Shown: piece after piece, positions 1,481 through 37,810 of the stretch
Position numbering within the stretch: position 1 is the stretch's first letter
How the letters are laid out: each line of letters begins with the position of its first letter
NCBI GenBank assembly: GCA_964607165.1
Contig: CAZSIT010000005.1
Span: forward strand, 13,492-77,491
Direction: 5' to 3'
DNA from: an uncultured Ignavibacteria bacterium
Lineage (GTDB): Bacteria > Zixibacteria > MSB-5A5 > DSPP01
DNA length: 64,000 nucleotides
Position numbers and translations under genes: made by a program
Notes under the pieces: generated by a model
The model's database searches: none
What the model was told of the DNA's origin: nothing
What the model saw: the letters and a program-made list of their open reading frames with translations, nothing else

Positions 1481-1508
1481 GTAGGGGCGTATTGCAATAC
1501 GCCCCTAC
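1481..1508. repeat. REP element: perfect 28-bp palindrome GTAGGGGCGTATTGCAATACGCCCCTAC.
   Basis: It is a self-complementary palindrome read directly. It shares the GTAGGGGC/GCCCCTAC termini with more than 12 other hairpins in the window. Confidence 0.8.
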
Positions 1509-1576
1509 AAAACAACCTCACCCTTAATCCCTCTCCATCCTTCGGCTACGCTCAGGACAAGCGGGGTGGAGAGGGA

Positions 1577-1755
1577 GGGCGATGGATTCGACTTCGCTCA
1601 CCACAAGTTCACGAATCGCCCCTACATTAAAATCTGGTAGGGGCAGACCTCCGTGTCTGGCTTTCTTAAAAAGTGGGCGAACACGTAGGTTCGCCCCTAC
1701 GGTTGCGTCAGGAATAATTCCTGACGCAAGGGGCACGTTGCAACGTGCCCCTACA
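1577..1755. repeat. Cluster of REP-like hairpins (1577-1625, 1637-1661, 1673-1700, 1730-1754) interleaved with one TCAGGAATAATTCCTGA palindrome at 1705-1727.
   Basis: Each unit is a GC-rich stem that ends in CCCCTAC or starts with GTAGGGG, for example GGGCGAACacgtagGTTCGCCCCTAC and GGGGCACGTTGCAACGTGCCCCTAC. Confidence 0.7.
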
Positions 1756-2032
1756 TGAAAAACAGGGATTAGGGATTAGAAGAAAAAAGAGCCGCTTTAA
1801 TATTGATTTTGCGCCTCCCTAAATTGTTTCACGTGAAACAATTCCCTTAAGGCAAAAAGCCGCTTCGCCTTTGCCAAACGCGAAACGGATTTTTCGTAGG
1901 GGCGAACAGCCGCTCGTCCCTGGTGGTAGCCTCGACTTCACTTGTCCTGAGCGAAGTCGAAGGAGTCGAGGGTTTTCCGACACTTCCCTCGACTACACTC
2001 GCGACAAGAAAGTGTCGGCTACCAGCCATAAT

Positions 2033-2057
2033 CCCCTCTCCATTAAATGGAGAGGGG
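2033..2057. repeat. REP subtype CCCCTCTCCATTAAATGGAGAGGGG.
   Basis: It is a palindrome. The same stem recurs at 1529-1575 (long loop), 31367-31390 and 34172-34198. Confidence 0.7.
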
Positions 2058-2111
2058 GTTCGGGGGTGAGGTAAACTTGCTCCCCCTCTCTTTTTTTCGT
2101 AGCTTAATCCA

Positions 2112-2780
2112 GTGCAAAAAATGGTGACCCTCGAGGATGTTAAAAAAAACGAGGAAGTTCAATCTTTTATTGAAATGGCCGACCGCGTTCTTGGGGTCAT
2201 CGGCTACACCGAGCACGGCTTGCGTCACACCGCCCTGGTGGCCAATATTGCCCACAACGTGATGAGCCGGCTCAAGCGCCCGGAGCGCCAGGCCCAGCTG
2301 GCCTCAATCGCCGCCTTGCTGCACGACGTCGGCAACGTGATATCGCGCGACTACCACGCCCAGACCGGAGCTTTGATCGCCCAGCGGGTTTTGTCGCAAA
2401 TGGGGATGCCGACCGAGGAGGTTCTGGAAATTATGGCGGCCATTGGCAATCACGAAGAACGCGGCGGGCAGCCGGTGAACGAAATCGGCGCGGCCTTGAT
2501 TTTGGCGGACAAATCGGACGTGCACCGCTCGCGGGTGCGCGTCACCGGTTCCATCACCCAGGACATTCACGACCGGGTCAATTATGCCGCCACTTCATCT
2601 TTTCTTCGAGTAGAAGAGGGAGACAGCACTATTTCTCTGGAAATCAGAATTGACACTTCCATTTCACAGGTAATGGAATATTTTGAGATTTTTCTTTCGC
2701 GGATGGCCTTTTGCCGGCGGGCGGCGGAATTTTTGAAAACCAAGTTTGAGCTGGAAATCAACGGGCAGCGGCTTTTATGA
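2112..2780 (+). CDS. HD-domain phosphohydrolase.
   Basis: It carries the H..HD metal-binding motif (HGLRHTALVANIAH ... LLHDVGN) and has the size typical of standalone HD hydrolases. Confidence 0.7.
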   Translation: MQKMVTLEDVKKNEEVQSFIEMADRVLGVIGYTEHGLRHTALVANIAHNVMSRLKRPERQAQLASIAALLHDVGNVISRDYHAQTGALIAQRVLSQMGMPTEEVLEIMAAIGNHEERGGQPVNEIGAALILADKSDVHRSRVRVTGSITQDIHDRVNYAATSSFLRVEEGDSTISLEIRIDTSISQVMEYFEIFLSRMAFCRRAAEFLKTKFELEINGQRLL

Positions 2781-3799
2781 GCGAATACAAAAAAGCGGGC
2801 GTGGACATCGCCTTAGCCGAGCAGGTCAAAAACAAAATCAAACTGCAAGTGGCTTCCACGCGCACGCCGGCGGTTTTGGCGGATGTAGGCGCTTTTGGAG
2901 GGATGTTCGCTTTTCCCAGAGATTATAAGGAACCGGTTTTGGTGGCGACCACCGATGGGGTCGGAACTAAACTGAAAGTGGCAATTACAGCAGGAAGATT
3001 AGATACGGTCGGCGAAGATTTGGTCAACCACTCGGTCAACGACCTTTTGGTTCAGGGAGCGGCGCCGCTTTTCTTTATGGATTATCAGGCCTGGGGAAAG
3101 TTGGATGCCGCCGCCGGAGAAAGTTTGATGGAAGGACTCGTCCGCGGCTGCAAACGGCACAACTGCCCGCTTTTGGGCGGCGAAACGGCGGAGATGCCGG
3201 GATTTTATGCTCCCGGCGAGTTCGACTTGGCCGGTTTTATGGTTGGGATTGTCGAGCGCAAAAAAATTCTGGACGGACGGGCAATTACGGCGGGGGATGT
3301 TTTGATTGGCTTGGCCTCGTCCGGCCTGCACACCAATGGATATTCGCTGGCGCGCAAAGTTTTGCTCGACTCCGGCACGTTCAAGCTGGACAGTTTTTTG
3401 CCGGATTACCGGGCGACTTTGGCGGATGAATTGTTGCGGGTACATCGTTCCTATTTTCACCTCTTGCATCCATTGATTTTGCAGGGAAAACTCTCCGGTT
3501 TGGCGCATATTACCGGCGGGGGAATTCCGGGAAACTTGATTCGCATTCTGCCCTCGGGCGCTACGGCGATTGTCGATACCGGTGCTTGGGAGGTGCCGCC
3601 GATTTTTCGGCTTATACAAAAAGCGGGTGAAGTCGGTAAACAGGAAATGTATCAGGTTTTCAATATGGGAATCGGAATGGTTTGCGTGGTGCCAAAAGAC
3701 AAGGTGGATGACTTCATGCGCGACTTGAAAGGCCGGGAAGAAAAATTCTGGACTATCGGCGAGATTTCGACCGGCAAGCACGAGGTTGTGTTGAAGTGA
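2777..3799 (+). CDS. purM: Phosphoribosylformylglycinamidine cyclo-ligase (AIR synthetase).
   Basis: It aligns over full length to PurM (VGAFGGMF, GGETAEMPG, HITGGG motifs). Its ATG overlaps the upstream stop as ATGA. Confidence 0.92.
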   Translation: MSEYKKAGVDIALAEQVKNKIKLQVASTRTPAVLADVGAFGGMFAFPRDYKEPVLVATTDGVGTKLKVAITAGRLDTVGEDLVNHSVNDLLVQGAAPLFFMDYQAWGKLDAAAGESLMEGLVRGCKRHNCPLLGGETAEMPGFYAPGEFDLAGFMVGIVERKKILDGRAITAGDVLIGLASSGLHTNGYSLARKVLLDSGTFKLDSFLPDYRATLADELLRVHRSYFHLLHPLILQGKLSGLAHITGGGIPGNLIRILPSGATAIVDTGAWEVPPIFRLIQKAGEVGKQEMYQVFNMGIGMVCVVPKDKVDDFMRDLKGREEKFWTIGEISTGKHEVVLK

Positions 3800-36284: not shown

Positions 36285-36357
36285 GCGCCATTAGCTCAGT
36301 TGGTAGAGCAGCTGACTCTTAATCAGCGGGTCGAAGGTTCGAGTCCTTCATGGCGCA
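36285..36357 (+). tRNA. tRNA-Lys (anticodon CUU).
   Basis: It folds as a cloverleaf with the anticodon loop CTCTTAA, GGTTCGAGTCC in the T-arm and discriminator A. Confidence 0.88.
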
Positions 36358-36394
36358 TAGAAGACAGAGATTAGATTCGAGATTAGAAAACTCC

Positions 36395-37156
36395 TTGAAA
36401 TCCGCTCTTGAATTAGCCAAAAAAGCTTCTTTGAAGGCCGGGGAAGCGGCCTTACGCTATTTTCACGGTGGCGCTAATGTTTCCATCAAATCCGACGGAA
36501 CGCCGGTGACCCAAGCGGATAAAGAGGCGGAAGAAATAATCATCCATGTTCTCAAAAAAGAAATGCCGGACTGTGGGTTTTTAGGAGAAGAATTCGGCGA
36601 GCAAGGCCCAAAGGATAAGCGTTGGATTATAGACCCGATTGACGGGACCAAAAATTTTATACGAGGAATACCGGTCTGGGCGGTGATGATTGGATTGGAG
36701 GAAGGGGGAGAAATTACCGCTGGGGTTGTCTATAATCCTGCAACGAAACAGCTCTGGACGGCGGCAAAAGACTTGGGGGCGTATTACAACGGCGAACGAA
36801 TTTCGATTTCCGCCATCGATTCGCTCGCAAATGCCCAACTGTTGCACAGCGGGTTGAATACGATGCGGAAAAGCAAGTACTGGGATGGGTTCTTACGGCT
36901 GGTAGAATCAACCAAACGCCAACGCGGGCCGGGAGATTTTCTGGGATATACGATGGTGGCGCAGGGACAAGGGGAGATTTATTTGGAGAATGAATTGAAG
37001 CCGTGGGATATTGCCGCAAATCAAATTATCGTAAAAGAAGCCGGCGGAGAGTTTACGGATTTTGAGGGGGGTTCAAGCATTTATTCCGGGTCGGCCTTGG
37101 CGACGAATGGAAAGTTGCATCGGCTGGTTTTGGAGATTCTTCAAGGCCAGACGTAG
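36395..37156 (+). CDS. Inositol monophosphatase family protein (SuhB/HisN-like).
   Basis: It has IMPase motifs (WIIDPIDGT, ...GD...). A TTG start is proposed downstream of the heptad repeat, since the longer ORF from 36350 would be translated through repeat DNA. Confidence 0.75.
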   Translation: MKSALELAKKASLKAGEAALRYFHGGANVSIKSDGTPVTQADKEAEEIIIHVLKKEMPDCGFLGEEFGEQGPKDKRWIIDPIDGTKNFIRGIPVWAVMIGLEEGGEITAGVVYNPATKQLWTAAKDLGAYYNGERISISAIDSLANAQLLHSGLNTMRKSKYWDGFLRLVESTKRQRGPGDFLGYTMVAQGQGEIYLENELKPWDIAANQIIVKEAGGEFTDFEGGSSIYSGSALATNGKLHRLVLEILQGQT

Positions 37157-37204
37157 GGGCGAATCGCCAGATTCGCCCGGGTGAGCCTGAAGGTTCACCC
37201 CTAC
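37153..37204. repeat. REP pair in alternating orientation, as in E. coli BIMEs: GTAGGGGCGAATCGCCAGATTCGCCC then GGGTGAGCCTGAAGGTTCACCCCTAC.
   Basis: This is the second copy of the two-hairpin unit seen at 31309-31361. Confidence 0.7.
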
Positions 37205-37279
37205 ATTTGAAACATTTTGATATTTCCTTATATTTCACCGTTGGGCGGGTATGTCCCCGTTCATCAGAGGAGGTTATTT

Positions 37280-37774
37280 ATGTTTATGGGCAGAGTAGTA
37301 CGTACGGCTGGGTTAGTCGCCGGAATTTTTGCGTTCGCTGTTTTTGCTTTTGCGGGCGAAGAAGAAGAAAAACAGCTTACCAAACAAGATGTGCCTGTGG
37401 CCGTGCTTGCGGCTTTCGAAAAAGCTTATCCAAAAGCGGTGGTTAAGGGCTATTCAAAGGAAGAAAAAGATGGAAAAACCCTTTACGAAGTCGAAAGCTT
37501 GGAAGGCAAAACTCATCTCGACGTTTCATACCTCGAGGACGGCAGCCTGTTTGTGACGGAGGAAGTCGTGGCCGTGAAAAGTCTGCCGGAGGCGGTGAGA
37601 CAGACAGTCAAAAAAGAGCATCCGAAAGGAAAGATTAAACTGGCGGAGAAAATTACAGAGGGAACGATCGTTGAATATGAAGTAGTTGTCGCCCTTGGGA
37701 AAAAGAAGTTCGAAATAAAGCTGGATGCAAGCGGCAAAGTTTTAGAGAGCGAAGAGGCGAAAGAAGCCGAATAG
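37280..37774 (+). CDS. Secreted PepSY-like domain protein (two repeats).
   Basis: It has a signal peptide and duplicated GK.LYEVE...G.E...D..G motifs. The start was taken at the ATG with an upstream GGAGG. Confidence 0.55.
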   Translation: MFMGRVVRTAGLVAGIFAFAVFAFAGEEEEKQLTKQDVPVAVLAAFEKAYPKAVVKGYSKEEKDGKTLYEVESLEGKTHLDVSYLEDGSLFVTEEVVAVKSLPEAVRQTVKKEHPKGKIKLAEKITEGTIVEYEVVVALGKKKFEIKLDASGKVLESEEAKEAE

Positions 37775-37785
37775 GGTTGTAAGAA

Positions 37786-37810
37786 GGGCGAACACGAGGT
37801 TCGCCCCTAC
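37786..37810. repeat. REP: GGGCGAACACGAGGTTCGCCCCTAC.
   Basis: It is almost identical to the REP at 1673-1700. Confidence 0.7.

Follow-up and report, generated by a model that had tools for sequence, protein, structure and literature searches.

The locus described here raises the question of whether the short hairpins that gather in two parts of it are mobile repeats, spread by transposases such as the one encoded among them, or structures that the host keeps for its own use. It is a 64-kb stretch of contig CAZSIT010000005.1 (hereafter, the window, meaning the whole stretch that was analysed), whose FtsZ is 81-82% identical to its closest named proteins, which belong to the candidate division Zixibacteria. 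With a probability of roughly 0.8, the hairpins are GTAG-headed repetitive extragenic palindromic (REP) elements of the type associated with Y1 HUH transposases known as RAYT (REP-associated tyrosine transposase) or TnpA-REP, matching subclass 2.4 of these enzymes, and would have been spread by RAYTs, each subtype by its own paralog. The over-representation of the head, the hairpin structure and gene-end placement of the units, the intactness of the RAYT gene, the match between hairpins inside and outside RAYT genes, the constraint at the nucleic-acid level and the turnover among relatives are direct observations. By analogy with E. coli TnpA-REP, the enzyme would bind the folded single-stranded hairpin and would cut and rejoin it at the GTAG head; single units and doublets with GTAG on the outside could thereby spread to non-essential DNA, for the most part directly 3' of genes.

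GTAG-headed hairpins in the window

The two strands of the window together contain 18 matches to the octamer GTAGGGGY, against 1.71 expected from dinucleotide-preserving shuffles, and 0 of 100 shuffles reach 18, so that the enrichment over a shuffled background is confirmed at window scale. Site reading and a hairpin scan show that the matches mark about 15 hairpin units in intergenic or gene-edge positions, plus one inside the RAYT gene. The initial annotation of this DNA had counted at least 18 hairpins; there is indeed a hairpin at every site that it listed, but the figure of 18 refers to octamer termini. All units are located within 1.4-2.1 kb and 31.3-37.8 kb, none being found by octamer count or hairpin scan between 38 and 64 kb, and every unit except the RAYT-internal one lies outside genes or at gene ends. 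The octamer at 26277 was rejected as a REP and is regarded as a chance match, since it is located within a gene and does not fold. The locus L003, which is attributed to the same genome, is also enriched, with 11 GTAGGGG in 10.5 kb.

The units are short GC-rich stem-loops of 22-28 nt, with one of 49 nt. The GTAG head is present in 15 of the 16 units and replaced by GCAG in one (31307), while GGG directly follows the head in every unit. Folded as single-stranded DNA (ssDNA), 11 of the 16 are far more stable than shuffled sequences (z −4.0 to −7.5), and the other five, which start at 1637, 1896, 32404, 34200 and 37179, are degenerate. Enrichment, heads and folds together bear out the initial description of the hairpins as GTAG-headed REPs, and the GTAG 5' ends attributed to them hold as well. 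Only two hairpins, however, carry both GTAG and CTAC, namely 1481-1508 and 33043-33070; each is a perfect 14+14 palindrome that opens with GTAG and closes with CTAC, and 32066-32093 comes close to this form. All other units have one foot. The earlier list of sites also overlooked the units at 1896-1922, 32066-32093 and 32404-32444, and wrongly included 2033-2057, which belongs to a separate family because it has neither a GTAG nor a CTAC end. The units are the following:

1481-1508, no strand assigned: double-foot REP GTAGGGGCGTATTGCAATACGCCCCTAC, a perfect 14+14 palindrome, 13 nt past the stop of the open reading frame (ORF) 158-1468; fold −12.6 kcal/mol, z −6.3
1577-1625, minus strand: REP unit headed by GTAG, with a long structured loop on the stem GGGCGAT…ATCGCCC; fold z −3.1
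1637-1662, plus strand: degenerate REP unit GTAGGGGCAGACCTCCGTGTCTGGC; weak fold, z −1.6
1675-1700, minus strand: REP unit GTAGGGGCGAACCTACGTGTTCGCCC, with a near-copy at 37786-37810; fold z −4.0
1727-1754, minus strand: REP unit GTAGGGGCACGTTGCAACGTGCCCC; fold z −5.7
1896-1922, plus strand: degenerate REP unit GTAGGGGCGAACAGCCGCTCGTCCC; weak fold, z −1.7
31307-31332, plus strand: left half of a doublet, head mutated to GCAG, stem GGGGCGAATC…GATTCGCCC, 30 nt past the ftsZ stop; fold z −6.3
31336-31361, minus strand: right half of this doublet, GTAGGGGTGAACCTTTAGGTTCACCC; fold z −5.3
32066-32093, minus strand: REP hairpin inside the RAYT ORF, sense strand GTAGGGGCAATTCATGAATTGCCCTTAC; fold z −4.6
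32404-32444, minus strand: degenerate REP-like unit with head GTAGGGGT, with 38 nt between its far end and the start codon of the downstream RAYT; weak fold, z −1.2
33043-33070, no strand assigned: double-foot REP GTAGGGGTTTGATTAATCAAACCCCTAC, overlapping the stop of an Ada-like ORF, of a type also present in the relative L086; fold z −7.5
34129-34150, minus strand: REP unit GTAGGGGCGAATGGCATTCGCC in the divergent spacer between Ada-like and Lon-N-like genes; fold z −4.2
34200-34224, minus strand: degenerate REP unit GTAGGGGCACAGCGCGCCGTGCC; fold no better than shuffles, z −0.2
37153-37178, plus strand: left half of a second doublet, the TAG of its GTAG (37154-37156) being the stop of ORF 36350-37156; fold z −5.5
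37179-37204, minus strand: right half of the second doublet, GTAGGGGTGAACCTTCAGGCTCACCC, with one stem mismatch; fold z −2.0
37786-37810, minus strand: REP unit GTAGGGGCGAACCTCGTGTTCGCCC, 12 nt past the stop of a PepSY-like ORF; fold z −5.3

Several of these recur, as had been noticed from the sequence beforehand. The unit GGGCGAACACG(T)AGGTTCGCCCCTAC does have two copies, at 1675-1700 and 37786-37810, which are a 1-nt deletion apart, and the two-hairpin unit likewise has two copies, 31307-31361 and 37153-37204, both arranged with GTAG outside. These doublets differ by a few substitutions and a 4-nt indel and have the flanks ACG…ATTT in common, which is consistent with their having been copied as one unit. 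Pairs in alternating orientation are found GTAG-outside at both doublets and at 1637-1700, and GTAG-inside at 1577-1662, the degenerate unit 1637-1662 thus taking part in one pair of each kind (with 1675-1700 and 1577-1625, respectively). The two halves of the doublets are unlike (GCGAATC and GTGAACC stems), with about 73% identity between arms by inspection; each half should therefore fold singly, and a long hairpin of the REPIN type would be imperfect.

The RAYT gene and its internal hairpin

The transposase gene is the following:

31755-32366, minus strand: RAYT / TnpA-REP-like Y1 HUH transposase gene, 203 aa, with Pfam Y1_Tnp and the HUH and Tyr motifs

Its sequence identifies this ORF as an intact RAYT. 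The match to the Pfam domain Y1_Tnp (PF01797) scores 28.7 bits (cutoff 23), the HUH motif is HVH (residues 81-83), and the catalytic tyrosine belongs to the motif NYYEHIIR (NYYEH at 146-150); among 25 RAYT homologs, H81 and Y147 are invariant and H83 is near-invariant. The protein has at least 8000 database homologs, several of which are named "REP element-mobilizing transposase RayT" by JGI, and its sole PDB match is E. coli TnpA-REP (4ER8), a weak one (E 0.02) that covers the C-terminal motif only. The RAYT gene that the initial annotation had placed in the window is thus real.

RAYTs are typically present in a single copy per genome (Bertels et al. 2017, PMC5581495). A tblastn search with two RAYT paralogs finds one RAYT gene only in the window; the gene is not single-copy, at least two paralogs being located on one contig. 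The second, P0037, is 55% identical to the window RAYT and lies on the same 120,024-bp NCBI contig as the window RAYT and the window FtsZ. It is carried by L003, which shares its JGI sample with L001 and has six further units of five stem types outside the RAYT gene, and its own hairpin differs from that of the window RAYT. In the alignment, the N-terminal 45 residues of the two paralogs, P0001 and P0037, are nearly identical by inspection, despite the overall identity of 55%.

The internal hairpin of the window RAYT (32066-32093) encodes VGAIHELPL in frame, starting nine residues past the HUH histidines and ahead of NYYEH. It was compared with those of a homolog set of 80 loci from many phyla, comprising 71 RAYT genes, which was obtained by a scan of GTDB representatives and in which the homologs are at most 57% identical. 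A GTAGGGGC…GCCCCTAC hairpin is present just past the HUH motif, in the same place, in 52 of the 71 genes (73%). The homologous hairpins are mostly perfect 14+14 palindromes, their stems vary by changes on both arms, as in L031 and L046, where such changes keep the pairing, and they use only two reading frames, those that avoid an in-frame TAG. The 28-mer of the window, with CTA replacing TTA, recurs in the RAYTs of five other loci from different phyla. It had been argued that identical subtypes imply recent copying; as the same 28-mers recur across phyla and the stems are constrained, identity alone gives no date for the copying.

Codon usage at identical residues was compared among the ten genes of the VGAIHELPL clade, whose median amino-acid identity is 48%. 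Codon identity is 80% in the hairpin but 42% over the remainder of the gene; in the protein motifs that are best conserved it is 27-53%. In 16 genes a perfect internal hairpin is kept with no external unit in flanks of up to 20 kb. At the level of these sequence comparisons, the internal hairpin is shown to be under nucleic-acid-level constraint, seen at synonymous sites. Rfam has no family for hairpins of this type, its matches in the window being a tmRNA and two tRNAs only, and a literature search for the string GTAGGGGC gave unrelated primer matches only.

Matching of REP subtypes to RAYT paralogs

In homolog loci, a common arrangement has three copies of the hairpin, the first about 50 nt ahead of the RAYT gene, the second within it and the third at its 3' end. 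Of the 36 loci with both internal and external units, 28 have an external unit that repeats the stem arm of the internal hairpin; when the pairing is permuted, such matches average 1.4 and never exceed 6. The locus L042 has two RAYTs and two matching REP types. The genome to which the window belongs has many stem subtypes, each of which is probably served by its own RAYT paralog, marked by the paralog's internal hairpin.

This bears on the claim that the cognate RAYT is located in the window, which is not supported in that form. The stem of the window RAYT, GCAATTCATGAATTGC, is found in no intergenic REP of the 64 kb, where at least eight other stem types are present, and a second paralog lies on the same contig. 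Since its stem type GCAATTCA is absent from them, the window RAYT is, as far as the stems tell, probably not the cognate enzyme for most REPs of the window, and other paralogs are expected. Some window REPs equal internal hairpins of RAYTs in other genomes: 1481-1508 is identical to that of a RAYT in L023, a Zixibacteria metagenome-assembled genome, and 1727-1754 to that of L012, its stem being also that of the L022 internal hairpin. Looser resemblances link 34200-34224 to the L032 internal hairpin GCACGGCGCGCCGTGC and 1637-1662 to GTAGGGGCAGACC…GTCTGCCC units of L003, L041 and L042. Around the window RAYT itself, there is only the degenerate upstream unit (32404-32444), whose position matches the upstream flanking REP of homolog loci, and no unit is found from the stop codon to rpmB; many homolog loci have upstream, internal and 3' copies.

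Other loci show a different organization. L071 has a dense array of a single REP type at 9778-16467, with 23 external unit records, and L073 has head-to-tail REP arrays with a 62-nt spacing at 10617-11001, both in contrast with the many-type, low-copy pattern of the window.

The presence of the internal hairpin at the same site in 73% of the genes, the 28 of 36 stem matches, the 80% versus 42% codon identity and the 16 isolated hairpins together lead us to propose, tentatively and at slightly less than even odds, that selection maintains the internal hairpin as an ancestral cis element of this subclass of RAYTs, where it would be the best-conserved REP in the system, and that it is not an incidental, tolerated insertion. 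It could be the recognition site of the enzyme itself, serving autoregulation at the DNA or mRNA level, or it could be a master copy that sets which dispersed REP subtype a paralog propagates. If the cis-element proposal is true, the REP repertoire of a genome would be readable from its RAYT genes, and pairs of RAYT and hairpin would have moved between phyla as units; if the internal hairpin is functional, it would offer a handle on the control of RAYT activity and specificity in REP/REPIN systems. On the practical side, sequence alone is enough to match a REP subtype to a RAYT paralog, which would guide biochemical tests of REP recognition. For annotation, many spurious ORFs and the odd "VGA…PL/APT" segments of RAYT proteins can be recognized as translated hairpins.

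Placement, turnover and alternative explanations

Five of the seven REP sites start at most 30 nt past a stop codon or overlap one, namely those past ORF 158-1468, past ftsZ and past the PepSY-like ORF, and those at 37154-37156 and 33059-33061; the site 34129-34224 is a divergent spacer. At two of them the REP takes part in the coding sequence. The inositol-monophosphatase-like ORF 36350-37156 is terminated by the TAG of a GTAG head (37154-37156), a stop supplied by the REP, and the Ada-like ORF on the minus strand has its stop (33059-33061) inside the double-foot REP 33043-33070, so that its final residues are REP-encoded.

A run of co-oriented plus-strand ORFs extends over 15296-31277, its last gene being ftsZ (30069-31277; Pfam Tubulin, FtsZ_C), and the orthologous stretch in L084 and L086 is an annotated division and cell-wall (dcw) cluster, from the Mur ligases through ftsA to ftsZ. 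Within this run there is no REP unit, which accounts for the clustering of REPs only at its ends.

Placement at gene ends is also compatible with hairpins that are mainly functional for the host, as terminators or attenuators, stabilizers of mRNA 3' ends or protein-binding sites, held at gene ends by selection and with only a historical link to RAYTs. Most units are located directly 3' of ORFs or overlap stops, their GC-rich stems are stable, and such roles have been assigned to REPs in the literature (in the excerpts of PMC3733652 drawn on here). This explanation is nevertheless a doubtful one. L084 is 90.6% identical to the window in nucleotide sequence over the dcw cluster, and yet the REP set of its ftsZ-rpmB spacer is entirely different, so that no particular unit is conserved at a site. 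In addition, several units are decayed, the site 34129-34224 is a divergent promoter region, most units are not followed by a T-run, and host function leaves unexplained both the conserved GTAG head and the match to RAYT-internal hairpins.

More distant relatives (FtsZ 82-86% identical), whose sampled regions are mostly the dcw operon, have rpmB without an adjoining RAYT and 0-2 units in 12-21 kb, which are of the same kinds; in L089, two units are located exactly at the position of the window RAYT. Because the spacer REPs of L084 differ and the distant relatives have no RAYT beside rpmB, units and RAYT are, on sequence comparison, elements that turn over on a short evolutionary scale.

The orthologous RAYT of L084 (11739-12382) is itself a mosaic: it matches window 31755-32366 at about 92% identity in its 5' and 3' ends, while its core (codons ~25-140, comprising HUH and hairpin) belongs to another RAYT clade and appears frameshifted. 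This core carries GCACGTTGC(C/A)ACGTGC hairpins, which have the stem, and are of the type, of the window REP 1727-1754. The mosaic and the near-identical N-termini of P0001 and P0037 both suggest gene conversion among RAYT paralogs.

If the hairpins are RAYT-spread REPs, a single enzyme might still account for all of them. The window RAYT, with a relaxed stem specificity that accepts GTAGGGG followed by any hairpin, would then mobilize every subtype of the window; in keeping with this, the gene is intact, and GTAGGGG(C/T) and the GGG stem base are common to all subtypes while the rest of the stem varies. We consider this unlikely, since dispersed REPs match the internal stem of their own RAYT (28 of 36, permuted mean 1.4), the two RAYTs of L042 come with two matching REP types, at least one second paralog with a different hairpin is present in the genome, and repeat-specific REPtrons are reported for multi-family genomes (PMC3733652, in the excerpts mentioned). 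It is very improbable, finally, that the intergenic hairpins are surviving internal hairpins of decayed RAYT genes rather than transposed copies: 1481-1508 and 1727-1754 are identical to hairpins within RAYT genes elsewhere and the L084 RAYT appears frameshifted, but tblastn with two paralogs detects nothing in the window beyond the one RAYT gene, not even leftover coding similarity beside a REP, which led to the rejection of this candidate, and units 0-30 nt from neighbouring stops and up to five in 180 nt leave no room for remnants.

The reading of the hairpins as REPs spread by paralog-specific RAYTs thus remains the preferred one, although several points weigh against it. Two good inverted REPs bracketing the window RAYT are not found at the locus, its own stem is missing from the intergenic REPs of the window, and five of the 16 units show decay. 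For this RAYT subclass, catalysis and mobility would follow from analogy. The identical 28-mers found across phyla could reflect constraint or horizontal transfer and not ongoing transposition, and the copy counts cover the 64-kb window and L003 only.

Other repeats and neighbouring genes

Hairpins of the form CCCCTCTCC…GGAGAGGGG were considered as a further REP subtype and rejected, as they have no GTAG or CTAC ends. The sequence CCCCTCTCCATTnAATGGAGAGGGG, which was said to occur four times, has only two exact copies (2033 and 34173), the other two being looser variants at 31367-31390 and 1528-1576.

A second family, of the form CCCTCTCC-loop-GGAGAGGG and with no GTAG head, adjoins REPs at 1528-1576, 2030-2075, 31367-31390 and 34158-34198 of the window and at 474 and 3406 of L003, and it is also found in Nitrospirota, Chloroflexi and other Zixibacteria loci. 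Its outer arms are often CCTCACCCC / GGGGTGAGG. A GGGGWSAS motif is reported in the terminal inverted repeats (TIRs) of TIRYT genes (PMC3733652, in the part consulted), and the outer arm of this family fits the motif in sequence, a candidate likeness to a TIRYT TIR. A third type, TTGCGTCAGGA…TCCTGACGCAA, is present at 1703-1729, where it abuts two REP units, and at 60308-60361.

The 640-nt spacer from ORF 158-1468 to an HD-domain ORF has other repeats packed in 1760-2030, including GGGATTAGGGATTAG and the palindrome AATTGTTTCACGTGAAACAATT. It also contains an inverted repeat of about 100 nt, GGTAGCC…GGCTACC, at 1924-2024, the arms of which (CGACTTC…GAAGTCG, CTTGTCCTGAGC) recur in the loops of the 1528-1576 and 1577-1625 hairpins.

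As for RNA genes, a tmRNA gene is located on the plus strand at 37978-38336 (183.8 bits), about 170 nt downstream of the REP 37786-37810. Two tRNA genes, both on the plus strand (36157-36228 and 36285-36357), lie just upstream of the inositol-monophosphatase-like ORF, the listed start of which overlaps the second.

Comparison with known systems

The system is of an already described kind, since the traits of TnpA-Y1 subclass 2.4 (PMC6006769) and of the GTAG superfamily (PMC3733652, in the parts drawn on) have both been published. In subclass 2.4 (Quentin et al. 2018, BMC Genomics 19:475, PMC6006769), the head is GT[AG]G, the stem starts from three consecutive G-C pairs, there are "double-foot" REPs with 5' GTAG and 3' CTAC, and the tnpA-REP gene carries an in-frame REP in the interval from HuH to Y. 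The window has the same GGG stem base, double-foot palindromes and in-frame REP between HUH and Tyr, so that the two are matched by their described traits. In the published account, internal REPs are viewed as tolerated insertions in a peripheral loop, the location of the loop being modelled (PMC6006769). Beyond that account go the presence of the internal hairpin in 73% of 71 homologs, the match of its stem arm with external units and the conservation at synonymous sites. What is new is the Zixibacteria example, which adds little weight to a well-described repeat class; the intragenic REP itself was already published in 2018 (PMC6006769). The additions made here are the match between internal and external hairpins, the nucleic-acid constraint, the persistence of internal hairpins without neighbours and the types common across genomes, and the locus offers a clean case of a less-studied RAYT subclass with a REP in its own transposase gene.

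The REP/BIME elements of E. coli and their TnpA-REP (Ton-Hoang et al. 2012, PMC3333891; Messing et al. 2012, PMC3479197, 4ER8) likewise combine GTAG-headed GC-rich hairpins in alternating pairs with a Y1 HUH enzyme. The E. coli REPs have bulged, longer stems of few types, in contrast to the short perfect stems, many types, double-foot forms and intragenic copy of the window. E. coli TnpA-REP acts on the ssDNA hairpin, whereas the window RAYT is known from its sequence, and the similarity between the two is very low (E 0.02). Binding of a cognate ssDNA REP by a RAYT and its cleavage at GTAG are known for E. coli TnpA-REP only, as summarized in the portion of PMC3733652 used here.

Inverted doublets that recur as a unit and an association with RAYTs are also features of the Pseudomonas REPIN-RAYT system (Bertels & Rainey 2011, PMC3116915; Bertels et al. 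2017, PMC5581495). The window differs from it in that the stems of the doublet halves are unlike, two RAYT paralogs are located on one contig and the RAYT group is another one, which may be "Group 4" of Bertels, a group common in Cyanobacteria and Chloroflexi-type lineages.

Further resemblances in organization are described for the GTAG superfamily, for which head-to-head (HH) and tail-to-tail (TT) dimers, clustering, sites downstream of ORFs, intragenic units and, in multi-family genomes, repeat-specific REPtrons are reported in the excerpts consulted of Di Nocera et al. (2013, PMC3733652). With this superfamily and its REPtrons, as far as the same excerpts and those of Nunvar et al. (2010, PMC2817692) describe them, the window shares the GTAG tag, the HH and TT dimers, the clustering, the sites downstream of ORFs, the occurrence of an intragenic unit and the coexistence of several families. 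Among the GTAG families listed in these excerpts (PMC3733652, PMC2817692), neither Zixibacteria nor the stem types of the window were seen. Unlike the REPtrons as described there, the window RAYT has no two clean flanking REPs.

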